In this document: piece after piece, positions 8,324-62,292 of the stretch
How positions within the stretch are numbered: position 1 is the first letter of the stretch
How the letters are laid out: each line of letters begins with the position of its first letter
Assembly: GCA_964389325.1 (NCBI GenBank)
Contig: CAYMEN010000005.1
Coordinates: forward strand, 31,672 to 95,671
Origin: an uncultured bacterium
GTDB taxonomy: Bacteria; Muiribacteriota; Ozemobacteria; Ozemobacterales; Ozemobacteraceae
DNA length: 64,000 bases
Reading direction: 5' to 3'
Position numbers and translations under genes: made by a program
Notes under the pieces: generated by a model
Told to the model about the DNA's origin: nothing
Seen by the model: only the letters and a program-made list of their open reading frames with translations
The model's database searches: none

Positions 8324-8353
8324 TTGACACCTCCAGAGGGGGGCCCCTATACT
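8324..8353 (+). promoter_or_regulatory. Sigma70-like promoter upstream of phaC (TTGACA-18-TATACT)
   Basis: Read directly, ~70 nt upstream of the phaC ATG. Confidence 0.45.
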
Positions 8354-8424
8354 TTCCCGGCCGGTGCCCGCCCCTCACGCACCGGATATCAGATCCGTAC
8401 ACCCCAGGGAGGAACGTCGATATC

Positions 8425-9537: not shown

Positions 9538-9553
9538 AGAGGAGACGAATCCC

Positions 9554-9916: not shown

Positions 9917-10020
9917 TCTTCTTCCGACCGAGCCGCCCGGGCGACTGCCCGGGCGGCGTATTTTTGCACCATGTTTTCTCTGCCCATCACATTTTCCAAC
10001 GCAAATCCCCGGGCAGGCAT

Positions 10021-10069
10021 TGTGCATTGCAAAATATTTCTTGACTTTTTATTGCATTGCGGGTATCCT
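10021..10069 (+). promoter_or_regulatory. Promoter (TTGACT-17-TATCCT) with two TGCATTGC(A/G) PhaR-type boxes flanking the -35
   Basis: GTGCATTGCAAAATATTTCTTGACTTTTTATTGCATTGCGGGTATCCT. Same box as at 7163. Confidence 0.55.
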
Positions 10070-10105
10070 CTGCTCATACCCCACACGGAATTCGACAAAG
10101 GAGCC

Positions 10106-10456
10106 ATGACGATGGAAGCACTGTTTCAAGAGTATCTCAAGGCCGGCCGCGACGTTCAGACGTTCTGGGAGAACCGGATCGCCCAGGCGATGGACGAGTT
10201 CGCGAAGTCGCAGACGTTCGTCAACACGATGACCCGCTCGCTCGAGCAGGGCCTCGACATGCGCAAGATGTGGGAAACGAACCTCAACCGCTGGGCCGAG
10301 ACCTTCCAGCTCGTCACCAAGCACGAGCTCGACGAGATCAGCCGCCGCCTCTACGACCAGAACGCTTACCTCGACAAGATCACGACCCAGCTCGCCGACA
10401 TCGCCGGCCAGGTTCGCACCCAGACCGAAGCCGTCACCGGTCGGAATACCAACTGA
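10106..10456 (+). CDS. Second short PhaE-like/phasin-like protein
   Basis: Start at MTMEAL (ATG 10106), preceded by AAAGGAG. Shares the HELDEISRRL..LDKITTQL motif type with the 9554 protein. Promoter with two TGCATTGC boxes upstream. Confidence 0.5.
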   Translation: MTMEALFQEYLKAGRDVQTFWENRIAQAMDEFAKSQTFVNTMTRSLEQGLDMRKMWETNLNRWAETFQLVTKHELDEISRRLYDQNAYLDKITTQLADIAGQVRTQTEAVTGRNTN

Positions 10457-10660
10457 AGCCGGTTTCAGGAACGAATCCGCAGATCGAGAGCCGATGGAAG
10501 CAGATGAAGGACAGATGAGATCCGCATCCTGGAAACATTTGATGTTCGATATAATCTGGCAACTCAAGGAAAAACGTGTTCCAGGATTTCATCTGTGTCA
10601 TCTGCGCCATCTGCGGATGGGTTCTCGCAACAGATCCTCAATCGCCAACAGGAGGCGACG

Positions 10661-11746
10661 ATGAACGACACCCTCACGAAAAGCGCGTCCAGGCTTCTTG
10701 AAGCGACGGCCGCCAACATCGACCTCGCCGGCCGCATCATCGAGAAGAACCTCGACTCGCTCCTCTCCGCCTCACCTGCATCGCACGACGAGCCATATCG
10801 CGGTGCAACAATGGTCGAGGAGATCTTCCGGTTCGACTCGATGAAGCTCCTGCGCTACCGCGGCACGGCCCCGATCACCTGCCCGACGCCGCTGGTGCTC
10901 GTCCCGTCTCTGATCAACCGCGCCTACATCATGGACCTGATGCCCTCCGCGACCCTGGCCGGCCATCTTCGCGAGGCGGGCATTCAGGTCTACCTGCTCG
11001 ACTGGGGCACCCCCGGCCCGCAGCACGACCACCTGCCGTTCCGGTTCTTCGTCGACGAGCTCATCGCCATGGCCGTGCGCGAGGCGTGTCGCGATACCGG
11101 CGCCCGGAAAGCGTCGCTGCTCGGCTACTGCATGGGCGGCACCATGCCGCTCCTCCACGCCGCTCTCCATCCTGACCGCATCGAGCGGCTCGTCATGCTC
11201 GCCGCCCCCGTCAACTTCCATGACGAAGGCACTCTCTCTGCCTGGGCGCGCAAGGAGGCCTTCGACGTCGACACGCTCGTCGATGTCCTCGGACATGCCG
11301 ACTGCGCGATGCTCCAGTCGTCCTTCCAGCTGATCAAGCCCTTCTCGGGGTATCAGAAGTGGAAGAACGTGTTCGAGGGCAGTCTCGACTCGAAGGCCGC
11401 CGAAAGCATCGTCGCCCTCGAGGCCTGGCTGAACGACAACGTCAACGTTCCCGGCGAGGCGTATCGCGGCTATGTGAAACTCTGTTACCACGACAACGCC
11501 ATCAGGAACCGGTGCTTCGATTTCGACGGGAGCCGGATCGACCTCGAAAAGCTTTCCATCCCGGTCATGAACGTCATGGCCTCGAAGGACCACATCGTTC
11601 CGATCGAGTCTTCCCGGTTTCTGTCCCAGCTTGTTTCGGGACCGGTCACGGATCTCGTGATCGATGCAGGGCACATCGGCGTCGTCATGGGCCGAAAGGC
11701 CCGCGGCATGTTCGAATCCGTCGCGAAGTTTCACACCAACGCCTGA
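10661..11746 (+). CDS. phaC: Second class III-type PHA synthase PhaC paralog
   Basis: Lipase-box GYCMGG. LINRAYIMDLMPSATLAGHLREAGIQVYLLDWG. GGAGG RBS at 10651. Terminator hairpin follows. Confidence 0.8.
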   Translation: MNDTLTKSASRLLEATAANIDLAGRIIEKNLDSLLSASPASHDEPYRGATMVEEIFRFDSMKLLRYRGTAPITCPTPLVLVPSLINRAYIMDLMPSATLAGHLREAGIQVYLLDWGTPGPQHDHLPFRFFVDELIAMAVREACRDTGARKASLLGYCMGGTMPLLHAALHPDRIERLVMLAAPVNFHDEGTLSAWARKEAFDVDTLVDVLGHADCAMLQSSFQLIKPFSGYQKWKNVFEGSLDSKAAESIVALEAWLNDNVNVPGEAYRGYVKLCYHDNAIRNRCFDFDGSRIDLEKLSIPVMNVMASKDHIVPIESSRFLSQLVSGPVTDLVIDAGHIGVVMGRKARGMFESVAKFHTNA

Positions 11747-11781
11747 GTTCACCAATTTCATCCCACGTTCCTATGTTCTTG

Positions 11782-11818
11782 GGACCGGCTCGCAAGAGCC
11801 GGTCCATTTTGTATTTGA
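11782..11818 (+). terminator. Terminator after phaC paralog
   Basis: GGACCGGCTCGCAAGAGCCGGTCC followed by ATTTTGTATTTG. Confidence 0.6.
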
Positions 11819-11994
11819 TATATAATACGCTATTGTTCTTTCCACGTCCGGACAGGCTCCTTTTCCGGACCCCGACAAAACGAAACTCACGCCGGTCACG
11901 ATCCGTTTCCATTTGCAAAAATTCCTCTATATCGAATATGATCCCTGTCGAAAAAATGAAACTCCCTTCTTTCCATCACCGTCTGGAGGAGCCC

Positions 11995-13341
11995 ATGAGC
12001 CAGGATCTGAAGCAGTGGTCTGTTTTCTTTCTCGTTCTCGTCATCGCCTCCCTGCCCGCCAAAGCCATTGGCGCGGGGTACATGGTGCGTGAGCACGGCA
12101 CGACCGGCATGTCCAGCGCTTTTGCCGGAGTGCACACCGGCGCGCACGATCTCGCCGACACGTATTTCAACCCGGCGGCCCTGGTGCTCCACGCGCCGGG
12201 GGAAGCGATCGTCTCGGTGCTGCAGCTCGATCCGGACGTGCGCTTTTCCCTGAGAGGCGCCACAACGGCCGTCGGCACGGCGGTCGGCGGGTATCCCGGA
12301 GGAGAGGATGGGGCTCCCACGGCCACGATCCCGGCCGTCTACGCCTCCCTTGCCGATTCAAAGGGATGGCGGTTCGGTCTTGCCATGAACGCCCCGTGGG
12401 GCCTCAGCACGAAGTATACGCCGACCTGGGTCGGCCGTTACTATGCGATCGATTCCGAAATGACCTCCCTGGCGGTCATGCCGGTTGCCGGCAGACGGCT
12501 CGATTCGAAGTGGATGTTCGCCGCCGGGCTGAACATCCAGTCCATCGATGCGAAGCTCACCAACGCCGTCGATTACGGAACGATCGCGGCGGGGAGCGGC
12601 ATCCCGGGTGCCGCGCCGGCCACGCAGGACGGCGTCGCGGAAATGACCGGCGATGCCCGGGACGTCGGCTTCGTTCTCGGCTTCATCTGCGACATTTCCC
12701 CCCGGGACCGGGCCGGCCTCTCGTATCGTTCGGCCGTCCGGCACACCCTGAAGGGCGACTGCCGCTTCGGATTCGACGCCGCCGGCATGGCGGGAGCGAT
12801 GAACGCGGCAACGGGGCTTTTCTCCCACACCGGCGCGCGTTCCGACCTCACGACGCCCGAAATTCTCGGCATCGGGTACAGCCGCACCTGCGGCGCCTCC
12901 TGGACCGTGATGCTCGACGCGGCGAAAACGTTCTGGCACCGCTACGGCGGCCTGCGGGTCACTTTCGACAACCCCGCGCAGCCAGATTCCTTCACGGCGG
13001 AAGACTGGAAAGACGTCTGGTATACCTCGCTCGGCGCGATCTACCGGCCGAGTTCGCGGCTCGCCTGGCGCGCCGGCGTGGCCCGCGACCGCTCCCCCAT
13101 CCCCGATTCGCGCCGCACGCCCCGCATCCCTGGTTCCGACAGCCTGCAGATCGCCCTCGGAGCTGAATACCGCACGTCCGACCGCATGGTGATCTCGGCA
13201 GGATTCATGCGGATCTGGTATGACGACGCCCCGATCGATCTCCGGGCGGCTGACCCCGGCAACCTCCTGCGGGGCAACCTCTCCGGCGACTTCACCACCG
13301 GCCTCGACATCTACGGCATCCAGGCTTCATATATTTGGTAA
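11995..13341 (+). CDS. Outer-membrane FadL/TodX (OMPP1) family long-chain fatty acid / hydrophobic compound transporter
   Basis: Signal peptide MSQDLKQWSVFFLVLVIASLPAKA. GYMVREHGTTGMSSAFAGVHTG..NPAAL start motif. C-terminal aromatic end ..SYIW. GGAGGA RBS. Confidence 0.75.
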   Translation: MSQDLKQWSVFFLVLVIASLPAKAIGAGYMVREHGTTGMSSAFAGVHTGAHDLADTYFNPAALVLHAPGEAIVSVLQLDPDVRFSLRGATTAVGTAVGGYPGGEDGAPTATIPAVYASLADSKGWRFGLAMNAPWGLSTKYTPTWVGRYYAIDSEMTSLAVMPVAGRRLDSKWMFAAGLNIQSIDAKLTNAVDYGTIAAGSGIPGAAPATQDGVAEMTGDARDVGFVLGFICDISPRDRAGLSYRSAVRHTLKGDCRFGFDAAGMAGAMNAATGLFSHTGARSDLTTPEILGIGYSRTCGASWTVMLDAAKTFWHRYGGLRVTFDNPAQPDSFTAEDWKDVWYTSLGAIYRPSSRLAWRAGVARDRSPIPDSRRTPRIPGSDSLQIALGAEYRTSDRMVISAGFMRIWYDDAPIDLRAADPGNLLRGNLSGDFTTGLDIYGIQASYIW

Positions 13342-22319: not shown

Positions 22320-23021
22320 TCAGCGCAGGATCGAAGAGAGCAGGAGCAGGTCTTCGGGGCGGGTGACCTTGATGTTCAGGGGGGAACCCGGGGCGAGGAA
22401 GACGGGGAGGCCAAGACGTCTGACGAGCCCCGCGTCGTCGGTGGCATCGGCGCCGTCGGCGCGCGCACGGGCGAGAGCTTCACGCAGGAGTTTCACGGGA
22501 AAGATCTGCGGCGTCTGCATGGCGAACATCTTCGACCGGTCGACGGCGCCGGTCACGAGACCATCGGTGCTTTCGACGAGGGTGTCGGAGACCGGCACCG
22601 CGCACGAAGCGTTCCCCTTCCCGACCGCCAGGCCGAGACAGGCCCGCACGATCTCCGGGGTGATCGCCGGGCGCGCCCCGTCGTGAACGGCAGCCCAGCC
22701 GTCATCGTCCGGCAGGCTTGAAACGCCCGCCTCGACGGAGTCCTGCCTGCGTATTCCACCACATATATATTTTACTGGATGTTTCGGTTTCCAGCCGGCC
22801 AGGCGTAGTTTTCCCTCTTCGATCCAGGCATCCGGAAGGACCACGGTGATCTCGACCGTTTCGGGGACCGCGTCGAAGCATTCGAGCGACCATTGCAGGA
22901 CCGGCTTCGACCCGATCTCGAGGAACTGCTTCGGGATATCGCTTTTCATGCGCGCTCCCGACCCTCCCGCGACCACGACGGGATACAGTTTCACGGTCAC
23001 CGTTTTCTCCCGTGCAGCCAT
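22320..23021 (-). CDS. ispD: 2-C-methyl-D-erythritol 4-phosphate cytidylyltransferase
   Basis: VVVAGGSGARM..KQFL..G motif of IspD. 233 aa. Confidence 0.85.
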   Translation of the reverse strand: MAAREKTVTVKLYPVVVAGGSGARMKSDIPKQFLEIGSKPVLQWSLECFDAVPETVEITVVLPDAWIEEGKLRLAGWKPKHPVKYICGGIRRQDSVEAGVSSLPDDDGWAAVHDGARPAITPEIVRACLGLAVGKGNASCAVPVSDTLVESTDGLVTGAVDRSKMFAMQTPQIFPVKLLREALARARADGADATDDAGLVRRLGLPVFLAPGSPLNIKVTRPEDLLLLSSILR

Positions 23022-23908
23022 TCGGCGAGTTCCGACATGCGGGAAATCGGCCGCGGAAGGGCCCCGGCCGCTTTCAGCGCCTCGTCGCGCACCCGCGCGG
23101 CTTCCCGTTTCGCCCCGTCCATGCCGAGAAGCGCCGGATACGTGGACTTGCCGAGACGTGCATCGCTTCCCGGCGTCTTTCCGAGAGCGGCGGTGTCGCC
23201 CTCGACGTCTAGTATATCATCAACTATTTGAAACAGAAGGCCGATGTGACGGCCGTATTCGGTGAGATTGCGCATCTCGTCAGGATCGGCGCCGCCCAGA
23301 ATCCCGCCGATCCTGATCGAGGCCGTGAGGAGAGCGCCGGTCTTGAGCCGATGGATACGGCGAAGCTCGTCGATCGTCACCTCCCGGTTCTCGGCGTCGA
23401 CATCGAGCATCTGGCCGCCCACCATGCCGGCATGGCCGGCAGCCTCGGCGAACGCCTTCACCGCGGAGATCGCGCGGCCCGCGGGCACGTCATAGTCCGC
23501 GATGCGCGCCATCCACTCGAACGCCAGCGTCAGCAGGGCGTCTCCGGCGAGGATCGCCGTCGCCTCGCCGAACACCTTGTGGTTCGTGGGCCGGCCGCGG
23601 CGCAGATCGTCGTCATCCATCGCCGGCAGATCATCATGTATCAATGAATATGTATGGAGCAGCTCGAGCGCGCACGCCGCCATCAGGGGGCCGTTTCCCG
23701 AGGCGCCGAAGCCCTCCGCGATCATCAGGCACAGCGCCGGCCTGATCCGTTTTCCGCCCGCGCAGACGCTGTACCGCATCGACTCATGAAGGCGAGCGGG
23801 CACGGCATCGACGGGGGGCAGCCAGCAATCGAGCGCCTCGTCGACGCGCGTCCTGCAGGCGCGCAGCCAGTCTTCCAGCCCCGGCATCGAAGGCCCGTCC
23901 GAGGTCAT
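22997..23908 (-). CDS. ispA: Polyprenyl (farnesyl/geranylgeranyl) diphosphate synthase
   Basis: First DDxxD (LIHDDLPAMDDDDLRRG) and second DDxxD (FQIVDDILD) motifs. Start at MTSDGPS, overlapping the xseB stop by 4 nt. Confidence 0.85.
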   Translation of the reverse strand: MTSDGPSMPGLEDWLRACRTRVDEALDCWLPPVDAVPARLHESMRYSVCAGGKRIRPALCLMIAEGFGASGNGPLMAACALELLHTYSLIHDDLPAMDDDDLRRGRPTNHKVFGEATAILAGDALLTLAFEWMARIADYDVPAGRAISAVKAFAEAAGHAGMVGGQMLDVDAENREVTIDELRRIHRLKTGALLTASIRIGGILGGADPDEMRNLTEYGRHIGLLFQIVDDILDVEGDTAALGKTPGSDARLGKSTYPALLGMDGAKREAARVRDEALKAAGALPRPISRMSELAEWLHGRKR

Positions 23909-24204
23909 GACGGCCTGCCGTCCTTCTCGGGATCGAACGGCTCTTCGCGGGCCGACTCGATGTTCCCGATCAACTGCAGCATGCGCGCCTCGGCAGCGTC
24001 GAGCACGTTTCCGCATCGGCGGCTCAGCCCGGTGCCGACTTCATACAGGCGCAGGCCGAGCTCGAGCGCGGTCCCCTCCTGTTCGAGGGCCTCGACGGTC
24101 TGCTCGAGACGCTCCATGGCGTCTTCATACGACAGTTTCTCGATCATCTCGGGAGTGAGAGCCGCGAGCTCCTCGAGTTCTTTCCGATCGAACACCTTTT
24201 TCAT
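23905..24204 (-). CDS. xseB: Exodeoxyribonuclease VII small subunit
   Basis: FEEAMERLEQTVEALEQEGTALELGLRLYEVG typical of XseB. Start at MKKVFD. Confidence 0.8.
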   Translation of the reverse strand: MKKVFDRKELEELAALTPEMIEKLSYEDAMERLEQTVEALEQEGTALELGLRLYEVGTGLSRRCGNVLDAAEARMLQLIGNIESAREEPFDPEKDGRPS

Positions 24205-25526
24205 GAACGCGTGCCTCCCGGGATTTTGATTTCGACATCCTCGACGGCCACGCGGGCCCGGCCGTCGACCATCTGCAGATCGAGCTTTCGTCCGGCTTTC
24301 AGAGCCGCGGCGGAGGTGACGACCACGCCGTCTTCGTCCGTCGCCATCATGTAGCCTCTCGAGAGCACCGCCCGCGGATCGAGCGCCGTCAGCCGCGCGG
24401 CCGCCATTTCCCACGCGTGGCGGCACCGGCGCCTGAAAGCCTCGCAGGCGGTTTCCAGGTCGCGGGCCGTGTTCGCGACGTGCGTCCGGCGTTCGGCGAC
24501 GAGCAGAGCCGGCTTCCGCAGGAACCGGCAGGAGCGGGCATGTTCCAGCCGCCCGGCCAGGAAGACGATCATGTGTTTCAGGGCGCGGCCGAGCCTGTTG
24601 CGCCTGTCCGCGATCGCCTTCACCAGCTCGTCCTTGAGGGGAACGACCAGCTCGCCCGCCACCGACGGCGTGGCCGCGCGCTGGTCCGCGACGAAGTCGG
24701 CGATCGTGAAATCCGTCTCGTGGCCGATCGCCGAAATGACGGGGGTCTCCGCCGCCGCGATCGCGCGGGCGACGCGCTCGTCGTTGAACGTCCAGAGGTC
24801 CTCGAGACTGCCGCCGCCGCGCGCGACGATGATCACGTCGACCCGCGGATCGGCATCGAGCCGCCGGATTCCCGCCACGACCTCTTCCGCCGCGCCCTCC
24901 CCCTGCACCTTCACCGGCACGAGATACAACGGCATGTTCGGGAAACGTCTGCGTATCACACGATATATATCCTGCACGACGGCGCCCTTCGGCGAGGTCA
25001 CGACCCCGACGCCGCGCGGCAGGAACGGCAGGAGCACCTTCCGGTCGGCGTCGAACAGGCCTTCTTCCTGGAGTTTCGCCTTGAGCTTCTCGAACGCCTC
25101 ATACAGCGCTCCAAGGCCTGCCGGACGCAGGTCGGTGATGATGATCTGGTATTCGCCCCGCGGTTCGTAGACCGAGATGGAACCGTAGGCGACGATCTGG
25201 TCGCCGTTCTTGAAATCATGCTTGATCCTGCGCCTGTTGCCGGCCCAGACGGCGGCTTTCAGAACCGACGACGCATCTTTCAGGGAAAAATAGCAGTGGC
25301 CCGACGCGGCTTTGACAAGGTTCGACACCTCGCCCTGGACCCAGACGCCCTCGAGCAGGCTGTCTTTTTCGAGAAGCCGCTTGATGTGGCGTGTGACTTC
25401 CCCGACGGAGAGAACCCCGCGCGTCAGCTCACCGGACTCGTTTTCCGACTCGTCCGGGACGTCGTCGAACAGGGTCCGTTTCGGTTCAGGCTCTTCCCGT
25501 GGCGTTCTGGTCCTGAGTTTTGCCAT
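24201..25526 (-). CDS. xseA: Exodeoxyribonuclease VII large subunit
   Basis: OB-fold N-term (GVWVQGEVSNLVKAASGHCYFSLKD). VGVVTSPKGAVVQDI, GGGSLEDLWTFNDERVARAI. N-terminus overlaps the accC 3' end. Confidence 0.85.
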   Translation of the reverse strand: MAKLRTRTPREEPEPKRTLFDDVPDESENESGELTRGVLSVGEVTRHIKRLLEKDSLLEGVWVQGEVSNLVKAASGHCYFSLKDASSVLKAAVWAGNRRRIKHDFKNGDQIVAYGSISVYEPRGEYQIIITDLRPAGLGALYEAFEKLKAKLQEEGLFDADRKVLLPFLPRGVGVVTSPKGAVVQDIYRVIRRRFPNMPLYLVPVKVQGEGAAEEVVAGIRRLDADPRVDVIIVARGGGSLEDLWTFNDERVARAIAAAETPVISAIGHETDFTIADFVADQRAATPSVAGELVVPLKDELVKAIADRRNRLGRALKHMIVFLAGRLEHARSCRFLRKPALLVAERRTHVANTARDLETACEAFRRRCRHAWEMAAARLTALDPRAVLSRGYMMATDEDGVVVTSAAALKAGRKLDLQMVDGRARVAVEDVEIKIPGGTRS

Positions 25527-26943
25527 GTTCGGCCGCCTTTCCGCCGGCTCCGTTCGCGCGCTCACGAGCTTCCTCGTCGGTCCGCTGCATGTAGGCGATC
25601 ATCGACACCTGGTGTTTGTCGACGAAGCCCGTGGTCAGCAGCCCCGACCGGAACTCCTCATGCGAAAACGCCCACTGGTGGAACGGGATCGTCGTTTTGA
25701 TCCCCTCGACCCGGAACTCGTGCAGGGCCGCCTGCATACGGTCCATCGCCGTCTCGCGGTCGGGGCCCCAGGAGATCAGCTTGGCGACCATCGAGTCGTA
25801 ACTCGGGCTCACTGCGTATCCCGTATAGGCCGCCGAGTCGACGCGGACCCACGGCCCGCCGGCGGGCAGATAATCGTTGATGTGGCCCGGGCACGGCGCG
25901 AAGCCGTTCGCGGGATCTTCCGCATTGATGCGGCACTCGAAGGCCCAGCCGTGGGGGGTTATGTCTTCCTGTCTGAAGGGAAGGGGCTCGCCCGAGGCGA
26001 CGCGCAGCTGCATCTCGACGAGATCGTAGCCGGTGACCAGCTCGGTGACGGGGTGTTCGACCTGGAGCCGGGTGTTCATCTCCATGAAGAAAAAGTTGCC
26101 ATCAGCGTCGAGCAGGAACTCGATCGTGCCGGCGTTCACGTAGTCGATCGCCTTCGCGGCCTTCACGGCGGTTTCGCACAGCCGCCGGCGCAGGTCGGCG
26201 TTCACGGCCGGGGATGGAGACTCCTCGATCAGTTTCTGGTGACGGCGCTGGATCGAACACTCGCGCTCGCCCAGGGCGACGACATTGCCGTGATGGTCGC
26301 CCATGATCTGAACTTCGATGTGGCGCGGATTCCGAAGATACTTCTCGACGTAGACGCGGCCGTCGCCGAACGCCGACTGGGCCTCGGCCTGCGCCATGCT
26401 GAACAGCGTCCGGAACCGATCTTCCGTCTCGACCAGGCGCATGCCGCGGCCGCCACCGCCGGCGGAGGCCTTCACGAGGACGGGGAAACCGACCTTGTGG
26501 GCGATCTTCAGCCCCTCTTCGGGGTCCTCAACGCTGCCGGTCGAACCGGGCATCACGGGAACGCCGGACCGGATCATCAGGTCGCGCGCGACGGACTTCT
26601 GGCCCATCCGCTCCATCGCCCGATGGCTTGGGCCGATGAACACGAAACCGCATTTCTGGGTGATCTCGGCGAACGTCGGGTTTTCCGACAGGAAGCCGTA
26701 CCCGGGATGAATCGCGTCGCACTGGGTGGCATGGGCGACGGAAAGGATGTTCGGAATATTCAGATACGACAGGTCGGGACGGGCCGGCCCGATGCAGTAG
26801 GCTTCATCGGCGAGCCTGACATGCAGCGCCTGGCGGTCGACTTCCGAGAAGACCGCGACCGTCCTGATGCCGAGCCGGCGGCAGGTTCTGATGACACGAA
26901 CCGCGATTTCCCCGCGGTTCGCGATGAGAATCTTGTTGAACAT
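25486..26943 (-). CDS. accC: Acetyl-CoA carboxylase biotin carboxylase subunit, with ~40-aa C-terminal extension
   Basis: MFNKILIANRGEIAVRVIRT, ATP-grasp motifs, HIEVQIMGDHHGNVVALGERECSIQRRHQK. GAGGTG RBS. Start at 26943. Confidence 0.9.
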   Translation of the reverse strand: MFNKILIANRGEIAVRVIRTCRRLGIRTVAVFSEVDRQALHVRLADEAYCIGPARPDLSYLNIPNILSVAHATQCDAIHPGYGFLSENPTFAEITQKCGFVFIGPSHRAMERMGQKSVARDLMIRSGVPVMPGSTGSVEDPEEGLKIAHKVGFPVLVKASAGGGGRGMRLVETEDRFRTLFSMAQAEAQSAFGDGRVYVEKYLRNPRHIEVQIMGDHHGNVVALGERECSIQRRHQKLIEESPSPAVNADLRRRLCETAVKAAKAIDYVNAGTIEFLLDADGNFFFMEMNTRLQVEHPVTELVTGYDLVEMQLRVASGEPLPFRQEDITPHGWAFECRINAEDPANGFAPCPGHINDYLPAGGPWVRVDSAAYTGYAVSPSYDSMVAKLISWGPDRETAMDRMQAALHEFRVEGIKTTIPFHQWAFSHEEFRSGLLTTGFVDKHQVSMIAYMQRTDEEARERANGAGGKAAEHGKTQDQNATGRA

Positions 26944-26992
26944 GGTTACACCTCGCGTAAGGCTGTCACGCTGCATCGGCAGCGGCCGTGCG

Positions 26993-27424
26993 TCAATCGG
27001 GAAGGATCGAAAACAGTGCGCGGCCGAAATCGATGATCTCGCCTTCCTGAGCGAAAACGGTATCGACGGTTCCGGTGACGGGGGCGATCACCTGGTCCTG
27101 GATGCTGATTCCCCTGATGATCCCGAGCGTCTGGCCCTTGGCGACCTTCGCTCCGGCCTCGATCCGTAGTTTTCCGAAGGAGAACACGCCTACCCGCTCG
27201 GCCGTCACGGAAACAGGCTTCGGTGCTGCATCTTCGGCAACTCCGCCTTCCTGTTCGGAATCCGGGGCCGATGCCACGGCCGAAGCAGGCGTGGAACCCA
27301 GCACCATGCGCACGCTCACGTCCGCCGATTCGATTTCCAGTTCGGCAAAGCCGGCATTGCGCATTTCACCGATGAGCATCCGCAGTCGTGCGGCCAGTTC
27401 CTGTTTATCTGACATGTTTGCCAT
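26993..27424 (-). CDS. accB: Biotin carboxyl carrier protein-like (AccB homolog) with the biotinyl-lysine replaced (EAMKM -> RGISI)
   Basis: Aligns with E. coli BCCP (AELEIES.., ..GQTLGIIRGISIQDQVIAPVTGTV..). Serine sits at the position of the conserved biotin-attachment Lys. Confidence 0.65.
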   Translation of the reverse strand: MANMSDKQELAARLRMLIGEMRNAGFAELEIESADVSVRMVLGSTPASAVASAPDSEQEGGVAEDAAPKPVSVTAERVGVFSFGKLRIEAGAKVAKGQTLGIIRGISIQDQVIAPVTGTVDTVFAQEGEIIDFGRALFSILPD

Positions 27425-27727
27425 CCGTCTGTCCTGATTTGCAAGGTGGGGCGAAGCCGGTGAATGGTAGCATGACGCCGCCGAAGGCGCAAGACAGGCT
27501 CAGGGCGAACGGGCGTTATTCAAACTTCGAAGGGGGAAGAACACGTTTCCGTTTCCCGACAATCCATCGCCGATGTCGTCCGTTTGATGGCGAGGATGCA
27601 TCCGTCACGCGATACGACCGAGCAGGCTTGACTTTCCCCGGACTCGCGTCTATCATTCCGAAATCCGGCCGCACCCCATGAGGGAAGCGACCGAATGACG
27701 AAATCATGAGGAGAAAGGGATCGACCG

Positions 27728-28765
27728 ATGTTGACCAAACGTTTTCTGGTAACCGTACTTTTGCTGGCTGCCACTGCGATGAGCGCCATGGCCGGCGACC
27801 TGATGCAGCTCGTTCCTGAGAACACCGCGTTCCTGCTGAACCTGAATCTGGGCAAGATGTTCTCGACCGAAGCGATCAAGAAGCAGATCGACGACGGCAT
27901 GGCCAAGCAGTCGCCCGATCAGAAGAAAGCCTACGACGAGTTCGTCACCAAGACCGGCATCGACCCCTTCAAGCACCTGAAGAACGTCGTCGTGTTCGCC
28001 GCCCCCAAATCGGACCCCAAGTCCGAGAAGCAGGATGCCGGCGTCCTCATCGATGGCACCTTCGAAGTCGCCAAGATTCTTGAATCCATCAAGAGCGACA
28101 AGAAAGCCGCCGAAGACGTCTCCATCGAGAAGTATGAAGGCTTCGACGCCGTGAAGGGCAAGAAGGATGCCGACGGCATGGGCGTGTTCCTCGACAACAC
28201 CACTGCCGTCGTCGGAACGCTCCCGGCGATCAAGACCGTCGTCGACGTGAAGAACGCCAAGGGCAAGAACATCGCCGCCAACGCCGCTCTCGGCGGTCTT
28301 CTGAAGAAGGTCGACACCGGCGCCACCCTCTGGGGCGTGGGAATCATTCCGCAGACCCTGAAGGACCAGGCCAAGGCCAATCCGCAGGCCGCCCCCCTCG
28401 CCGCCGTCAACTCCCTGTTCTTCTCCTTCAACTATGATGCCGACCTCACCTTCAACTTCACCGGCGAAGTCGACAAGAAGGAAAACATGGACCAGGTCAT
28501 GACCGCCCTCAACGGCTTCCTCGCCATGATCAAGATGCTCGCCGGCCAGACCCCCGAAGCCGCCGAGGTTCTCAACCTGATCAAGGTCGAAGCCGTCGAC
28601 ACCGCCGCCAAGATCACCCTCAACGTGCCCAAGGCCAAGCTCGACGAAGTCAAGAAGAAGATCGAAGAGCGCATGAAGGCCGCCCCGGCACCGGCCGCCG
28701 GCGAAAAGCCCGCCGAAGAGAAGGCCCCCGAAGCCCCCGCGGCTCCGGCCCCGACCGGCAACTGA
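27728..28765 (+). CDS. Secreted Lys-rich hypothetical protein
   Basis: Signal peptide MLTKRFLVTVLLLAATAMSAMAG. Lower-GC, Lys/Asp-rich. Terminator follows at 28784. Confidence 0.6.
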   Translation: MLTKRFLVTVLLLAATAMSAMAGDLMQLVPENTAFLLNLNLGKMFSTEAIKKQIDDGMAKQSPDQKKAYDEFVTKTGIDPFKHLKNVVVFAAPKSDPKSEKQDAGVLIDGTFEVAKILESIKSDKKAAEDVSIEKYEGFDAVKGKKDADGMGVFLDNTTAVVGTLPAIKTVVDVKNAKGKNIAANAALGGLLKKVDTGATLWGVGIIPQTLKDQAKANPQAAPLAAVNSLFFSFNYDADLTFNFTGEVDKKENMDQVMTALNGFLAMIKMLAGQTPEAAEVLNLIKVEAVDTAAKITLNVPKAKLDEVKKKIEERMKAAPAPAAGEKPAEEKAPEAPAAPAPTGN

Positions 28766-31415: not shown

Positions 31416-32660
31416 ATGATACTGACAAGACACCTTCTTCGAACCATTTTTCTGGCGATCTTCGTGTTCGTGGCCGGCTCGGCCGTTTCGGCTTCCGATC
31501 GGCTGTCGATCGGTCTGGAAGTCCTTGCGACCGGCCACCCCGACCTCGTCGCCGGGAAAAAAATCGCCCTTCTCGTCGGTCTCGCCTCCTACGATCAGAG
31601 CATGCGCCACACGGTCGATCGGCTCGCCCGCGCAACCACGATCAAGTCCATCTTTTCCGGCGATCCGTGGCCCCGCAGGCTGATCGAGTCCGCCTCCGGA
31701 ACGATACAGATCGACGCTCTCACGCAAGCGCCCGTCCGCATCATCCGAGACCCCCTGGAAAAGCCCCGGCCGGAGCAGCTGAACGGCGCCGAATTAATAG
31801 TCATTGATATACAAGACATTGGCATCCGGTTTTTCCAGGCCGTGACTCTTCTCGCCCAGTTTCTCGAACTCGGCAAGCAGGCGGGAATTCCCGTCATCGT
31901 CCTCGACCGTCCGAATCCGATCGGCGCCTCGAAAATTTCGGGGCCGCTTCTCGACGTCCAGTATCGGAGCAGGTTCGGCGTGTATCCGATCCCCCTGGTC
32001 TACGGCATGACGTTCGGGGAGCTCGCTCTTTTCTTCAACAGGGTTTTCGGGCTGAATGCCGATCTCACGGTCGTCGGCATGGAAAACTACCGCCGGAACG
32101 ACACCTACCGGGCCATCGGGCTCCACTGGGCGCTGCCGTCGGAGCATCTTCCCGACCCCGAATCGCCGGTTTACTACGCGACGACGGGGTTTCTGGGCGA
32201 GATGGGCATTTTTTCGACCGGCGTCGGAACGACGCGGCCGTTCCACTATGTCCTCGCGCCCTGGATCGACCCCGATGCGCTGATTTCGAAACTCGCCGTG
32301 CAGAACCTGCCGGGCGTCGCCTTCCTTCCGACCGCGGCACGGCCATATTACGGGCTGTTCCAGCAAAAGCGGGTGCCCGGCATCGAGATCGTCGTGACGG
32401 ACCACCAGGTCTATGATCCCGTGATGACGGGCATTGCCATTCTTCACGCCCTCTGGGCCCTGTATCCCGATAACATTCCGCTCTCGAACCAGACGGCGGC
32501 GGAAGGCGTCGACATTCTGCTGGGCGGTTCCACCATACGGACGGCAATCATCCAGGGCAAAGGGATAGACGAGATCCGCGGCCTCGTCAAAGCGCCCCTC
32601 ACGGATTTCCTGGCGAAACGGAAGCAGTTTCTCATATATCCGGAGGGGCACAAGCCATGA
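31416..32660 (+). CDS. DUF1343-family protein (NamZ-like exo-beta-N-acetylmuramidase family), secreted
   Basis: Signal peptide, then GKKIALLVGLASYD..IVIDIQDIGIRFFQAVTLLAQFLE..IPVIVLDRPNPIG typical of DUF1343. Confidence 0.75.
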   Translation: MILTRHLLRTIFLAIFVFVAGSAVSASDRLSIGLEVLATGHPDLVAGKKIALLVGLASYDQSMRHTVDRLARATTIKSIFSGDPWPRRLIESASGTIQIDALTQAPVRIIRDPLEKPRPEQLNGAELIVIDIQDIGIRFFQAVTLLAQFLELGKQAGIPVIVLDRPNPIGASKISGPLLDVQYRSRFGVYPIPLVYGMTFGELALFFNRVFGLNADLTVVGMENYRRNDTYRAIGLHWALPSEHLPDPESPVYYATTGFLGEMGIFSTGVGTTRPFHYVLAPWIDPDALISKLAVQNLPGVAFLPTAARPYYGLFQQKRVPGIEIVVTDHQVYDPVMTGIAILHALWALYPDNIPLSNQTAAEGVDILLGGSTIRTAIIQGKGIDEIRGLVKAPLTDFLAKRKQFLIYPEGHKP

Positions 32661-33139
32661 GTGTTCCTGCCCGTTCCGTCCGGCCGGGGATGTCGATGGT
32701 CGAGATCATGATCGGCGTCATCATCCTGGCACTGGTTCTGATCCCCTCTTTGAACGTCATCATTTCCGAGACGAAAATCGTCAACGCCACGCGTGACCAT
32801 ACGCAGGCGTCGTTCTTCGCCCAGAAAATTCTCGAGTCGGCCCATGCCTGCAACTTCGATCTGCTCGATGCCAACCAGTATAAAGATGATCCCGCAACCC
32901 AGAAGACCACCTTCGAATATGCCCTGCAGAACAACGAAGACTTCCGCACGGAAACCATCAACGGGATCAAATACGAAGTTGTCAAAAAGGACGATGATCT
33001 CGTCAAGTATGCCGCCGACAAGAACGACCCGGATGTCAGGCCAAACATGGTCTTTCTCTCTTTCACCGTCAAATATATCGGTCAAGATAAGAATCCGCAC
33101 ACGCTCGATATCCATACGGCCATCAACAGGCGCCAGTAA
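32657..33139 (+). CDS. Prepilin-type N-terminal cleavage/methylation domain protein (pseudopilin-like)
   Basis: G-MSMVEIMIGVIILALVL class III signal motif. Start overlaps the NamZ-like stop (ATGA). Confidence 0.7.
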   Translation: MSVPARSVRPGMSMVEIMIGVIILALVLIPSLNVIISETKIVNATRDHTQASFFAQKILESAHACNFDLLDANQYKDDPATQKTTFEYALQNNEDFRTETINGIKYEVVKKDDDLVKYAADKNDPDVRPNMVFLSFTVKYIGQDKNPHTLDIHTAINRRQ

Positions 33140-33159
33140 TCCGAAAGGAAGGGTATTCC

Positions 33160-33804
33160 ATGAGACGTGAAGGTGTGACGCTCATCGAGGTCATGATGGC
33201 GGTCATCGTTCTCGCCCTGCTCCTGACGGCCCTCTATCATACGTTCTCCTCATCCCGCAGGCAGGCGCAGGTGGTCATGCAGGCACACCAGACGAACGAC
33301 GAACTGCAGCGGCTGTTCGACAAGATCACCGACGACATCCGCGAGTCGAACTTCGTTCTCGAAGGAACGCCCCCCAAGGCGAGCCTGGAGCAGTCGAAGA
33401 CGCTGAACTCCGGAGACCCCGCGAATTATATCTCGTTCCATAAAGTGACGTATGATTTTTCCCTTCAACCGAAAAGTCTCGGAGACAACCAGTACAACTA
33501 CACACAGTTGCGCGTCACCTACAAACTCGAGAAGGTCGATCCCGACCAGGCGACGGGCCCGTATATTCTCTGGCGTGAGACGCTGCCGTTCGATGACCGT
33601 CGTCAGGAAGTCACGGCCCAGCGCGCGCGCAAGGTCATGATGGAGAACATCGACGAACTTATTTTCTTCAGGCTCAATGAACCGAACCTGCCGCACCATG
33701 ACAGCGTCTGTATTCGTGCGAGGCTGACAGGCCGTGGCAAAGACAGCACATACGACTCGACGCTTCTGACATCGATCAGGCAAAGGGGGGCCGAACCGCA
33801 ATGA
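33160..33804 (+). CDS. Prepilin-type N-terminal domain protein (minor pseudopilin-like)
   Basis: G-VTLIEVMMAVIVLALLL motif. Confidence 0.7.
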   Translation: MRREGVTLIEVMMAVIVLALLLTALYHTFSSSRRQAQVVMQAHQTNDELQRLFDKITDDIRESNFVLEGTPPKASLEQSKTLNSGDPANYISFHKVTYDFSLQPKSLGDNQYNYTQLRVTYKLEKVDPDQATGPYILWRETLPFDDRRQEVTAQRARKVMMENIDELIFFRLNEPNLPHHDSVCIRARLTGRGKDSTYDSTLLTSIRQRGAEPQ

Positions 33805-36113
33805 ATACCTGTGGGCGCAAAGGATCGGCGATCATCATCTCCGTGGGGCTCGGCTTCGTTCTCCTGATCGTCATTGCCTCGCTCAGGTCGTTCACCTCGT
33901 ATCGCGTGCAGAACACGATCATGGAAAACAGGAACCTCAAGGCCCTCGCCCTGGCCGAAGCCGGGATTTCCTTTGCCATGACGGAGCTGAGCCTGAACAG
34001 CTCGTTCAGGACCCACAAGGTCAAGATCGATGCGGCGCAGAAAAAGCTCCTCTGGGATGAAACCAACCTCCCCACCTGGCAACCGTCCATTGCGAACGAC
34101 AGCGATTTCACCTTCGCCCAGCAGAACACCTCCGGGAAAGGGTCCTACCAGGGCACGCTCGGCGACGGGCAGTTCCGGTTCCGCGTCGGGCTGGTCGAGT
34201 ATGAGGACGACGACCGGACGAAGAACATCGACGAAAGCAAATGCTTTTTCAAGATCGATTCGATCGGCCGGGTCGGAGATACGATGCGCAGCATCTCGTG
34301 CGTGGCGCAGCGCCGGTTCCCGGGCCGCGAGTTCCTGATGTTCGACATGGAGTTTCTCTCGATCGTGTATGGGGAACCCGGCGAGAACAACGTGAACAAG
34401 TTCTCGACCGGCAATCTCTACGGACACCATGGCGTCGAGGTCGGTCAGATTCTTCTTGATGGTCACAGCCCGCTTTCCAACCCCGGAACGAAGCAGGAGC
34501 TCTTCGACATTCACAGCATCATCAGCGGAGCAGGCGGAATTTTCTTCTGGCAGCCGACGAAGGTCACGTTCCGGGCAAGGCCCGGCATGCCCGAAGAAAC
34601 GATCACGATGCCTCAAAGCAACATTCCGTTCCCTCAGCATGGGACGTATTCATCGGCTGAAGGGGAAAAATACGGTGAGGTGCCGGCAGAAATCCGTGGC
34701 AAAACGCCGGCGATTCCCGACACCCTGAAAGAGAAACTCAAGGGGCGTATTCTGGACAAAACCTCTCAGATCAGCCTTTCGCCCGGCGAGCCGCGGTTCG
34801 GCGACCTCAAGAAACAGGCCCAGAGCGGGGGGTATATTCCCGAGAACGACGGATCGAATCCCGCACTGGCATACAAGGTTACCAGCGGCTGGGCGCCTTC
34901 CAACGGAGGGTCGGTGGACGCGCGAGTCCTCGATTTCGGAACGGGGCTTCGCAAGGGCAACCTGACGCTCCCGGCGAATTTCAACGGTGTGATCTACTCC
35001 GACACGAATCTCGTCATCAAGGGAAACCCGCCCCGCGACGTCAAGATCGTCTCGAAGAAGAGCATCTTCGTCGCCGGCGATTTCAATCAGCGAAACAACA
35101 AGTCGAAGAAAGAGGAAAAATACAGTTTTCCCCAGGACTACGAGCAAAGCGCCCTTCTCAGCGACGACTACAAGGAGAAGTCCAGAACCCTGTTGTCGGA
35201 CGACCTGAAGGCAGGCGCCAACCCGGACGACACGGGCAACTACAAGCATCATTTCGCGGCGAACGTGATCGCGAACGAGCGCGTGGTCTACGATTACCGC
35301 AGCCCGGTGGACTGTTTCGAAAACGAAATGTACCCCATCATGAAGTTCGCCCTCGCGAAGGAGTTCATGTCCGAGGCCGACGCCGAGACGAGCATGCTCA
35401 CCCATGCCGGAGACGGGAAAATCACGGCCGACCTGAGCGACGAGGATGCCACGAAAAATAAAATAGCATCGTATTTTGAAAAATTTCCTCTCGCGGACGG
35501 AACCGACAAGTCAGCCCAGGAGGCGATCGCAGATGGCTTCGCGAAGAAGTACAACTCTGCCGACGGCATCAGCGAGGCCGACTTCGAGAAGTTCTGCAAC
35601 GAAGAGATCTGGCCCGCCCACAGGGCGGGGTATGAGGCGAATGTTCTGTCCGGGAACAACGGCGCGTATCAGCTGTTCAACAAGCTCCTCGAAAAGGTCG
35701 AGGGAAAGACCGACAAGGACAACGACTACCTGTATTTTCCCGAGATGACGACGAACGGCATTTTCCAGAGCTGCGGCGTCAGGTCCAACGTTTTCTATAT
35801 GGGTCCGGATTATAGCAAGCGATATGACGAGATCGGACGGTCGCCGTCCTGCCAGGCCGCGGGCGTGGGCCGCGCCTATTGCACGATGGAGCAGATGGTT
35901 CACCGGGTGTATGGCTCCGAGGTCCGGTATGCCACGAACAAGACGCTTCCCAGAATCACCGGCTCGTCCTACCGGCCGCCCACGCGCAGAAAGCTGTACG
36001 ATCCGACGCTTCCATCGCTCGACATCGGCGACGGCAGCGGCGACATGGCTGCGTTCGTGATCCTCACCTGGAAGGACCTGCGCGCCTCTTCCGACGAATT
36101 CACGAATTTCTGA
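33801..36113 (+). CDS. Large (770 aa) PilX/GspK-like N-terminal-domain protein, putative pilus/pseudopilus tip component
   Basis: N-terminal RKGSAIIISVGLGFVLLIVIAS resembles the PilX_N/GspK hydrophobic segment. Long Ser/Asn/Gly-rich beta-rich body. Overlaps the upstream gene by 4 nt. Hairpin downstream. Confidence 0.6.
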   Translation: MNTCGRKGSAIIISVGLGFVLLIVIASLRSFTSYRVQNTIMENRNLKALALAEAGISFAMTELSLNSSFRTHKVKIDAAQKKLLWDETNLPTWQPSIANDSDFTFAQQNTSGKGSYQGTLGDGQFRFRVGLVEYEDDDRTKNIDESKCFFKIDSIGRVGDTMRSISCVAQRRFPGREFLMFDMEFLSIVYGEPGENNVNKFSTGNLYGHHGVEVGQILLDGHSPLSNPGTKQELFDIHSIISGAGGIFFWQPTKVTFRARPGMPEETITMPQSNIPFPQHGTYSSAEGEKYGEVPAEIRGKTPAIPDTLKEKLKGRILDKTSQISLSPGEPRFGDLKKQAQSGGYIPENDGSNPALAYKVTSGWAPSNGGSVDARVLDFGTGLRKGNLTLPANFNGVIYSDTNLVIKGNPPRDVKIVSKKSIFVAGDFNQRNNKSKKEEKYSFPQDYEQSALLSDDYKEKSRTLLSDDLKAGANPDDTGNYKHHFAANVIANERVVYDYRSPVDCFENEMYPIMKFALAKEFMSEADAETSMLTHAGDGKITADLSDEDATKNKIASYFEKFPLADGTDKSAQEAIADGFAKKYNSADGISEADFEKFCNEEIWPAHRAGYEANVLSGNNGAYQLFNKLLEKVEGKTDKDNDYLYFPEMTTNGIFQSCGVRSNVFYMGPDYSKRYDEIGRSPSCQAAGVGRAYCTMEQMVHRVYGSEVRYATNKTLPRITGSSYRPPTRRKLYDPTLPSLDIGDGSGDMAAFVILTWKDLRASSDEFTNF

Positions 36114-36143
36114 GGCACCGGATTTTCCCTCCCGTACATGGCA

Positions 36144-36170
36144 AACCGGATGGATCCCTTCCATCCGGTT
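36144..36170 (+). terminator. Hairpin after the large PilX-like gene (possible terminator; no T-tract)
   Basis: AACCGGATGG-atccctt-CCATCCGGTT perfect 10-bp stem. Confidence 0.35.
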
Positions 36171-36686
36171 GCGCAGGATATCCTGACTTGTGCCGTTCAG
36201 ACGAAGTTCAGGACACCATTTCCCCGCGGAGCGCCTCTTAGCGTCCCCGCACCCAGGGGCCATTCGTGCGGCACGGAACGTGAGCGTTCGTCGTTTCCCA
36301 CAACGGCGTTTCGGCCACCCGGGATTTTGCGATCATCCGTGTTCGCACCATATGCCTGCCTCCTTGTTTTCGGGCCGGGAGGGGGGTTATCCCCAACTCC
36401 TTATCTCTACAAATTACATCGTCAGAACCCCCACCCGACTTTCGTCAGATAATTTCAAGTTTTTCTATTAAAGCGGCCCCTTTTCGCAGCTGTTCTTTTG
36501 TTTTCTATCATAGATAGCTGAAATGAATTTTTTTTCTGATCAAAGACAGGGTTGAACAGCCGCCACCGGGCGGGGTTGAGCGGTTCGCGAACCGCCCCCA
36601 CGGTTTGTCGGGCGATACAGAAACGCGTTTTCGATCCTGAAAAACAGGGTCGCGCTTCCTCTGTGGTCCGTATTATCATCCGATTC

Positions 36687-38243
36687 ATGGACACCAACCA
36701 TACGGGCTTGCCGTCTTTCCTGCGGGAGGCCGTTTCGCACAGGGCTGGCCGGCTTGCATTCCTGGCCATCTGGCTTCTGCTTCACATCTTTTTTCGGACG
36801 TCCTTCTTCAATGATTGCGGCACGTATTCCCACACGATGTACGGGAACGTCATGCTTCACTCGGGAAGCCTGATCAGGACCGACCCGTTCACCTGTTCCC
36901 GGTTCGGCCACCCCTGGATCGCCCAGCAGTGGCTGAGCGAAGTCGGAATGGCGCTTCTGAGCATGATCGGCGGGTTCGACACGCTGCTTCTGGCCGCCAC
37001 GCTTCTGGCCGCCCTCACCTTCACGGGGGTCTGGGTCAGGCTGTACAACTCTGGAATGCACCCACTGATCTCGGTTCTCATCATGGCCATGGTGTTTTCG
37101 GCCGCCTCGATGCAGTTTCTCATCCGGCCGCTTCTCATCACGATGGCCGCGCTTGCGCTTCTCTTCTCGATGCTCGTCGATATAGAAGCAGGCCGGCGCC
37201 CGGTCAGCCATCTCCTGCTTCTGCTCCCCATCTTCTGGGTCTGGTCCAACAGCCACGGCGGGTATCTTGCGGGCATCGGAACGTTCGGTTTGGCTGTTGC
37301 CGGCTGGACCGCCCTGCGCCTGGCGAACGCTCCCACGCCGCTTTCATCGCCCCGCAGGGTGTTCATCGCCTGGATTTCCCTCTTCTTTGCCGGGGCCATG
37401 TCGTTTCTCGGCCCATACGGCACCGAGCTTCCGAAGACGTGGGCCACCATCATGGACTCTTCGGAAGTCAGAACCCTGATCATCGAACATTTGCCTCTCT
37501 ATGCTTCTCCTGAAGGGGCCGTCCCGATACTCCTGTTTTTGGGATATATCGCGTTTCTGGTGAAGTTTGCCGAGCGCCCCGTGCGAATCACCTGGCTCAT
37601 CCCCGTCGTCTGGTTTCTCCTTTCCTGGAGCCGCGTGCGGAATACGCCGCTGTTCGCGATCACGGCCGCCATCGCTTTTGCCGAGATGTATGCCCGTTCT
37701 TCCCGGCTGAAGATCGTTGCGCAGACGAAGCCGCTCTATGGCCTTGCGAACGACCGCCCCCCCGCGAGACTTCCGATCAGAACGGCGACCGTTCTTCTCC
37801 TTGCCGGACTCTGGCTTCAAACGAGCGGCTCGGTGATGCCGCTGTTCGGAACCGGCTGGGCAAAGCCCGATCATGCGCGCTGGCCGTTCGAGCTGGTCCC
37901 GGCCATCCGTGAATACGCCGAACGGAAGACGCCGAACAAAGCAGTGTTCACCGAGTTCAACCTCGGCTCCTGGGCCGTCGGCGTCGATCCGCGGCTGCGC
38001 GTCACGATCGACGATCGGTGCGAGCTGTTCGGCGACCGACTCATGCGGGAACACTACGAATCGGCTTCTGACACGCAGCTGATCGCCTCATGGGTGAAGG
38101 CGTTCTCCACGAACGCCGCCCTCACCTCACCCAACTCCGCGTTCGATCGCTGGTTCCGCGCCGCGCCGGGATGGCGCGTCGTGGCGACGGCACCGGCGGG
38201 AGTCTGGCACGAGCTCGACACGGGCGGGACGACTGAGCCGTAA
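36687..38243 (+). CDS. Polytopic membrane protein (>=10 TM), possibly glycosyltransferase-like; function unknown
   Basis: Many hydrophobic helices. Start (ATG 36687) uncertain. Preceded by a 570-bp intergenic region. Confidence 0.5.
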   Translation: MDTNHTGLPSFLREAVSHRAGRLAFLAIWLLLHIFFRTSFFNDCGTYSHTMYGNVMLHSGSLIRTDPFTCSRFGHPWIAQQWLSEVGMALLSMIGGFDTLLLAATLLAALTFTGVWVRLYNSGMHPLISVLIMAMVFSAASMQFLIRPLLITMAALALLFSMLVDIEAGRRPVSHLLLLLPIFWVWSNSHGGYLAGIGTFGLAVAGWTALRLANAPTPLSSPRRVFIAWISLFFAGAMSFLGPYGTELPKTWATIMDSSEVRTLIIEHLPLYASPEGAVPILLFLGYIAFLVKFAERPVRITWLIPVVWFLLSWSRVRNTPLFAITAAIAFAEMYARSSRLKIVAQTKPLYGLANDRPPARLPIRTATVLLLAGLWLQTSGSVMPLFGTGWAKPDHARWPFELVPAIREYAERKTPNKAVFTEFNLGSWAVGVDPRLRVTIDDRCELFGDRLMREHYESASDTQLIASWVKAFSTNAALTSPNSAFDRWFRAAPGWRVVATAPAGVWHELDTGGTTEP

Positions 38244-62291: not shown

Positions 62292-62292
62292 C

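Follow-up and report, generated by a model that had tools for sequence, protein, structure and literature searches.

Analysis of a 64,000-nucleotide stretch of DNA from an uncultured bacterium of the family Ozemobacteraceae (GenBank assembly GCA_964389325.1, contig CAYMEN010000005.1, positions 31,672 to 95,671 of the forward strand; hereafter the window) reveals, directly upstream of an intact biotin carboxylase gene (accC), a gene for a full-length homologue of BCCP (biotin carboxyl carrier protein) in which the lysine that carries biotin is lost, together with a neighbouring structural element known as the thumb. The gene, referred to here as accB*, stands in the place of accB and is kept under purifying selection. 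On the evidence of its sequence and gene order, the product AccB* is the Riflebacterial AccB orthologue, with the ability to carry biotin permanently lost. The explanation that we favour, and that we hold to be probable rather than certain by analogy with plants, is that AccB* serves as a non-catalytic subunit similar to the plant BADC proteins, which would bind AccC to act as its scaffold or regulator, with biotin riding on another protein whose gene lies elsewhere.

AccB* matches the Pfam family Biotin_lipoyl (PF00364) with an E-value of 2.9e-6 and 27.4 bits (cut-off 22.1), and reaches only 38.7 bits with TIGR00531, the NCBIfam equivalog for BCCP, far under the cut-off of 115.2. Its score for the lipoyl-domain family GCV_H (GcvH) is 12.6 bits, under the cut-off of 22.2, and the tip of the hairpin lacks a lipoyl-Lys as well. 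The top match among solved structures is the E. coli BCCP (4hr7_B), on which residues 82-138, including the segment GQTLGIIRGISIQDQVIAPVTGTV, align without a gap, so that the clear alignment across the biotinyl domain described in a first-pass annotation of this DNA is borne out. A second, weaker stretch of the same match pairs the two N-termini and places the N-terminal domain of AccB* on E. coli BCCP residues 25-60. The hairpin I-I-R-G-I-S-I-Q-D corresponds to the canonical BCCP column I-V-E-A-M-K-M-M-N, which sets R-G-I-S-I on E-A-M-K-M; the first-pass annotation had noticed that the flanking Met residues are changed along with the Lys, and in fact all of the flanking motif residues differ. 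The motif is found at 27089-27127, not at 27030-27080, the interval proposed there for a re-check of the reads. Profile-profile comparison with hhalign of 33 family members against 20 Lys-bearing BCCPs gave a probability of 99.9% and an E-value of 4.9e-33 over 146 columns, N-terminus included. The same comparison sets I-K-G-I-S on I-E-A-M-K and thereby Ser107 in the column of the biotinyl-Lys, which confirms that AccB* is a BCCP homologue without the attachment residue. There is no Lys in the hairpin or after it, residues 97-143 being entirely Lys-free. The Arg104 codon (AGG) of the window protein differs by a single transition from the Lys codon (AAG or AAA) found in nearly all close relatives, and Lys at position 104 is therefore dispensable.

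An AlphaFold2 model of AccB*, built from 15 homologues, has a mean predicted local distance difference test score (pLDDT) of 77.8. In this model the N-terminal domain consists of a helix (residues 3-24) and two strands (residues 28-32 and 37-41) with pLDDT values of 68-84. The linker that follows varies in length and sequence among the orthologues and has the highest nonsynonymous substitution rate (dN) of all AccB* segments. Foldseek places the predicted C-terminal domain on the E. coli BCCP (1bdo, template modelling score 0.82 and root-mean-square deviation 2.2 Å; 4hr7_G, deviation 1.7 Å) and also on the Pyrococcus BCCP and Arabidopsis BCCP1. The predicted turn is formed by residues 105-108 (G-I-S-I) in the same register as A-M-K-M, while residue 104 lies in a strand and not in the turn. 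With its N-terminal domain, flexible linker and C-terminal biotinyl-type beta-barrel, AccB* is thus laid out like AccB of E. coli (P0ABD8; TIGR00531). However, it differs from AccB in reading [KR]-G-I-S-I instead of E-A-M-K-M and in lacking the 5-residue thumb, which appears as a five-column gap in comparison with both the E. coli BCCP and the nearest Lys-bearing relatives. The thumb makes contact with biotin in BCCPs of the acetyl-CoA carboxylase type, and the exchange E119K reportedly weakens recognition by the biotin ligase BirA. Three features related to biotin are gone together in AccB*, namely the tip Lys, the thumb and the Glu at position -3, which is now Lys or Arg.

A sequencing or assembly error, with Lys as the true codon, had been considered in the first-pass annotation, and comparison with orthologues had been set beforehand as the test that could refute its observation. 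The outcome is the opposite, as the relatives universally lack the Lys. The 15 closest homologues (44-88% identity) all read [KR]-G-I-S-I and share 29 invariant columns, including G105, I106, S107, I108 and D110. Ten orthologous loci, taken from different assemblies, have either AGC or AGT as the tip codon, and at position 104 they have AAG or AAA, with AGG in the window alone. Moreover, an independent Logan assembly of the run SRR11845625 is identical to the window across 1138 nt (26900-28037). In exact look-ups, accB* matched a Logan contig alone, and the proteins of three genes near the window edges (274-1491, 61951-63042 and 59992-61575) gave no match. A change from AGC to either Lys codon takes two substitutions, and an error would have to explain the altered flanking residues as well, so that the probability of this alternative, for which we found no evidence, is practically nil. 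Since the substitution recurs in every orthologue examined, it is not a product of chance.

Alternatively, accB* could be a relic in decay, a former accB that has been inactivated, has lost its use and simply persists upstream of accC, as the missing Lys and thumb and the score far beneath the BCCP equivalog cut-off might suggest. However, the reading frame is intact in all orthologues checked, at 23-88% identity and throughout the phylum, with Ser or Asn at the Lys column in every one, and the Ser codon varies synonymously. In close pairs, accB* as a whole has a ratio of nonsynonymous to synonymous substitution rates (dN/dS) of 0.15-0.20; the ratio is 0.09-0.15 for the N-terminal domain, 0.07-0.26 for the C-terminal domain and 0.04-0.20 for the hairpin. 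These values contradict a relic, as do the invariant columns, G-I-S-I and the Asp of the hairpin among them. For accC the ratio is 0.03-0.07 in pairs of at least 86% identity and about 0.1 (up to 0.12) against the most distant orthologue. We find decay hardly credible, and taken as a whole the data rule out both error and decay of accB*.

The gene order identifies accB* as the positional orthologue of accB. It is located directly upstream of accC in 10 related loci, and the string accB*-accC-xseA-xseB-ispA is present in L002, L004/L005, L011, L012, L015 and L020. The last of these is a 2.25-Mb contig, and the cluster of its AccB* protein shares only some 23% identity with the window protein. 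The operon string is kept down to 23-38% AccB* identity, and wherever a locus was followed far enough downstream, genes of the methylerythritol phosphate (MEP) pathway come next. The nearest relatives that bear the Lys (P0038, with E-A-M-K-V; P0046; P0165) show the arrangement efp-accB-(small open reading frame)-accC-nusB, and xseA-xseB-ispA lies beyond nusB where the contig reaches that far, in L013 and L017. Unlike these relatives, the Riflebacterial accB* operon lacks efp and nusB. As accB of the Lys-bearing relatives occupies the same slot (efp-accB-accC-nusB-xseA-xseB-ispA), accB* is its orthologue by position and not an extra paralogue. The first-pass annotation had spoken of a pseudo-BCCP or regulatory paralog; a role of this kind remains the best reading, but the word paralog has to be given up. 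In the window accB* and accC are separated by a spacer of 49 nt with GAGGTG just 5' of the accC ATG, and the two genes are probably co-transcribed.

A profile search over 1.84 billion cluster representatives yielded 6380 matches, with Lys-less proteins that share the AccB* motif in the top ranks. In a neighbour-joining tree with the hairpin columns masked, 36 representatives at 50% identity form a single clade, in which the tip residue is Ser (33) or Asn (3). All members with a named organism belong to Ca. Riflebacteria, Ca. Ozemobacteraceae or Ca. Rifleibacterium, apart from one record given just as 'bacterium CG2_30_54_10'. A genome scan with the pattern IKGISIQD alone returned 7 loci, five of them titled Ozemobacteraceae or Riflebacteria and two 'uncultured bacterium'. 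The loss of the Lys is ancient and extends over the whole candidate phylum Riflebacteria. In the databases the family is labelled 'hypothetical' or 'biotin/lipoyl-containing protein' by NCBI and often 'acetyl-CoA carboxylase biotin carboxyl carrier protein' by IMG.

The first-pass annotation had described the adjoining biotin carboxylase as intact, and this holds. AccC is full length, scores 690 bits against TIGR00514 (cut-off 626.5) and is 51% identical to the E. coli enzyme, of which both the catalytic and the biotin-pocket motifs are kept: G-D-K, K-A-S-G-G-G-G-G-R-G-M-R, N-P-R-H-x-E-x-Q, R-R-H-Q-K, E-F-L, E-M-N-T-R-x-Q-V-E-H-P-V-T-E, E-C-R-I-N-A-E-D-P and H-P-G-Y-G-F-L-S-E-N. The C-terminal tail of AccC was considered as the site of an extra hidden domain, which was rejected as the tail is variable and not conserved. 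An intact biotin carboxylase implies a biotinylated substrate, and the existence of another carrier is presumed. Binding of AccB* to AccC is suggested by the conserved N-terminal domain together with the operon linkage. In the arrangement that we propose, the N-terminal domain of AccB* would hold onto AccC, as in a canonical BCCP, and the pseudo-biotinyl domain with its conserved [KR]-G-I-S-I-Q-D hairpin may dock on a partner, which could be the active-site region of the biotin carboxylase, the carboxyltransferase or the true carrier. Such docking might either assemble the biotin carboxylase complex or tune its activity, and biotin would ride on a second BCCP, or on a biotinyl domain fused to a carboxyltransferase, encoded elsewhere.

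Several observations weigh against this proposal. When the window was scanned in six frames for [AVSCG]-M-K-[MLIVA] and searched by phmmer with the E. coli BCCP, accB* alone was found and no second carrier in a plausible context; nor did the window yield a homologue of AccA or AccD. Pfam scans of about 40 window open reading frames (E up to 1e-5) detected no carboxyltransferase, biotin ligase (BirA) or biotinyl domain. In the related loci, which comprise flanks of up to 10 kb on each side of the Riflebacterial relatives and about 250 kb in all, phmmer with the E. coli BCCP, AccA and AccD as queries detected no further BCCP and neither AccA nor AccD. This search for a carrier covered the window and the related loci rather than whole genomes. 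Likewise, the profile search contained no Lys-bearing paralogue close to the family; the nearest such protein, P0038, itself stands in the accB slot, in a different operon layout. In a homologue search with P0038, organism names appeared among distant matches alone (Planctomycetes, Ca. Aureabacteria). In addition, no segment of the protein is better conserved than the hairpin. A passive scaffold would not require this much conservation, a hint that some specific interaction or chemistry is involved.

The same observations could be read as signs that AccB* is still a carboxyl carrier, with a non-canonical attachment such as biotin on K104, another prosthetic group on Ser107 or tightly but non-covalently bound biotin. 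The strong conservation of [KR]-G-I-S-I-Q-D, the fact that no other carrier was found near the locus or close in sequence space and the biotin pocket retained in AccC would all agree with such a carrier. However, Arg takes position 104 not only in the window protein but also in P0023, P0034 and P0036, which shows that Lys is not required there, and the window hairpin has no Lys at all. In the AlphaFold2 model residue 104 is predicted to lie in a strand and not at the turn, and the thumb is deleted. BirA is not known to tolerate any displacement of the target Lys, and no precedent is known for a Ser-linked cofactor on the biotinyl-domain fold. We consider this alternative very unlikely. There is also a slim chance that Riflebacteria lack any covalently biotinylated BCCP for AccC, and that the AccB*-AccC pair works through a new chemistry on G-I-S-I-Q-D, with either a different swinging-arm cofactor on Ser107 or free biotin presented non-covalently to the carboxylase. 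If so, it would be a previously unknown way to run the first step of fatty-acid synthesis.

It might also be thought that AccB* no longer has any part in the carboxylase and that its main role is to regulate gene expression, for instance through autoregulation of accB*-accC by its N-terminal domain. The E. coli BCCP reportedly autoregulates its operon through this domain. The N-terminal domain of AccB* shows both conservation and purifying selection, and the gene is still the first of its operon, behind a 303-nt upstream region (27425..27727). However, such a role would not account for how strongly the pseudo-biotinyl domain and its hairpin are conserved, and the upstream region showed no operator-like repeat, no Rfam element and no feature that would bind DNA or RNA. 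The same region holds no open reading frame with coding-type GC content at third codon positions and no Rfam family, and a promoter and terminator scan of it returned a lone sigma-70-like match at 27628-27656 on the plus strand, facing the divergent gene, and none for accB*. We regard a chiefly gene-regulatory role as unlikely; it is compatible with the BADC-like explanation and does not exclude it.

The closest functional analogy to AccB* is provided by the plant BADCs, which are BCCP homologues without the A-M-K-L motif, are not biotinylated and bind both the biotin carboxylase and BCCP (PMC11926652, PMC12706156). They have been described both as inhibitors and as the 'glue' of assembly (PMC11926652, PMC12706156), and BADC has been called 'unique to the plant htACCase' (PMC11926652). 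However, BADCs are extra paralogues beside BCCP1/2, whereas accB* fills the accB slot itself, and a true BCCP beside it is putative. AccB* is moreover bacterial and has a different replacement motif. As the Riflebacterial clade groups nearest to the bacterial syntenic accB genes in a comparison that included no BADC sequence, its origin is likely to be independent of that of the BADCs. In a bacterial BCCP domain, exchange of the Lys for Ala abolished both biotinylation and binding of the carboxyltransferase (PMC11077971). The actinobacterial epsilon subunits AccE/PccE, as they are cited in PMC11926652, are a small non-catalytic 'glue' that promotes the assembly or activity of the biotin carboxylase-carboxyltransferase complex. 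The proposed AccB* subunit would resemble them in being small and non-catalytic, but these subunits are unrelated to it in sequence and fold and are not derived from BCCP.

The coordinates of accB*, of its parts and of the neighbouring genes are collected in Table 1.

Table 1. Features of the accB* locus, in window coordinates
Feature	Position	Strand	Residues	Remarks
accB*	26993..27424	-	143 aa	Full-length BCCP homologue without biotinyl-Lys; stop codon 26993-26995; alternative start Met4 at 27415
N-terminal domain	27299..27424	-	1-42	Homologous to BCCP N-terminal segment; one helix and a beta-hairpin
Linker	27218..27298	-	43-69	Flexible, Ala/Pro/Ser/Glu-rich; pLDDT <50 at residues 45-65
Pseudo-biotinyl domain	26996..27217	-	70-143	Flattened beta-barrel; pLDDT 89-94
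Hairpin	27089..27127	-	100-112	L-G-I-I-R-G-I-S-I-Q-D-Q-V
Arg104 codon	27113-27115	-	104	AGG; replaces conserved Glu (-3); Lys (AAG/AAA) in most relatives
Ser107 codon	27104-27106	-	107	AGC; replaces biotinyl-Lys
accC	25486..26943	-	485 aa	Biotin carboxylase, from M-F-N-K; start ATG at 26943; reading frame could begin at 26976
xseA	24201..25565	-		Exonuclease VII large subunit; Pfam Exonuc_VII_L 8.7e-87; reading frame overlaps accC 3' end
xseB	about 23905-24204	-		Gene limits inferred from called genes of L002
ispA	about 22997-23908	-		Pfam polyprenyl_synt; gene limits inferred from called genes of L002
ispD, ispE, dxr, ispF	after ispA, down to 19421	-		Pfam IspD, GHMP kinase, DXP reductoisomerase, YgbB
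Divergent intergenic region	27425..27727	.		303 nt upstream of accB*; presumed operon promoter region

The reading frames of accC and xseA overlap in the window at 25486-25565, by up to 80 nt; in L002, L004 and L005 the overlap of the called genes amounts to 41 nt. Close packing of accC and xseA is common to all related loci, some of which have an overlap and others a gap of a few nt. Translation of two unrelated functions may therefore be coupled. In the Lys-bearing relatives, and likewise in a second Lys-less lineage, accB is separated from accC by a small open reading frame of 94-140 aa (L013 10434-10856, L016 8476-8865, L017 8444-8851, L018 8468-8752), which is absent from the Riflebacterial operons. 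Its C-terminus is conserved in L013, L017 and L018 as L-x-L-[PS]-x-x-[ML]-L-x-[CD]-P-[VI]-x-x-x-P-Y-x-Y-D-P-x-T-G-x-V-x-C-x-x-P-G-H. Two of these three, which were translated, have a prepilin-like N-terminus, and no Pfam match is on record. The possibility that these small frames are Lys-less duplicates of accB was rejected, as they represent a family of prepilin-like small proteins.

Further away, the window contains a polyhydroxyalkanoate cluster with a FadL-type outer-membrane transporter (6214-13341). The cluster consists of a PhaR-like regulator at 6214-6981 and, at 8425-9537 and 10595-11746, two alpha/beta hydrolases that resemble PhaC, and the transporter is located inside the open reading frame 11359-13341. 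Upstream of the accB* neighbourhood, a block of large proteins at 32657-38243 is conserved across Ozemobacteraceae, with equivalents in L002, L004 and L020. The window proteins of this block (160, 214, 770 and 563 aa) match no Pfam family, and in relatives one of the proteins shows a faint or weak N_methyl prepilin signal.

Proteins without the tip Lys are not confined to Riflebacteria. Among the 148 best-scoring BCCP-like representatives of up to 300 aa, 88 lack it (Ser in 33, Gly in 23, Arg in 13, Asn in 12 and other residues in the remainder), a share that is inflated by a search profile itself built from Lys-less sequences. The Lys-less representatives fall into several separate clades of a rough neighbour-joining tree, on which parsimony gives about 15 changes of state, and loss of the Lys appears to be recurrent in environmental bacteria. 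The metagenomic proteins P0169 and P0050 of the 'I-Q-A-L-G-I-G-N-D-V' clade and those of the 'E-A-M-R-L' types resemble AccB* in being full-length and BCCP-like with the tip Lys absent. However, such proteins form clades separate from AccB* and carry other replacement motifs, with Gly, Arg, Asn and other residues. In the literature searched, we found no description of bacterial Lys-less AccB orthologues or of these metagenomic Lys-less clades.

Some of these representatives have features of their own. P0169 (138 aa, tip Gly; L018/L019 8001-8417) provides a second case of a Lys-less protein that takes the position of accB, ahead of the small open reading frame, accC and nusB. Its 90%-identity cluster occurs on more than 46 contigs of up to 980 kb, and a homologue search with it returned 4 matches. 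P0087 and P0113 have an exact Lys-to-Arg exchange in an otherwise canonical E-A-M-R-L motif, and another Lys-less clade, 'A-L-G-I-x-N-E-V', has 12 members. P0040 (546 aa) has four tandem biotinyl-like domains with E-A-M-K-M in one alone, and P0032 (233 aa) has two tandem Lys-less domains (R/K-A-L-G-V-S).

The biotinyl-Lys of BCCP is among the most invariant features of biotin enzymology, and textbooks present accB-accC as the operon with which bacteria encode the first half-reaction of acetyl-CoA carboxylase. Against this expectation, a whole candidate phylum has a selected, non-biotinylatable protein in the accB slot. The label given to the family by IMG can lead metabolic reconstructions to credit these genomes with a carrier that is possibly absent at this locus. 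The share of Lys-less proteins among the best-scoring representatives, although inflated, suggests an overlooked class of pseudo-carriers. If the BADC-like explanation is true, AccB* would be a bacterial counterpart of plant BADC that replaces the orthologue itself, and non-catalytic mimics of BCCP would be a recurrent solution and not an invention of plants. Riflebacteria would then be a simple bacterial setting for the question of whether subunits of this kind assemble the enzyme or inhibit it.

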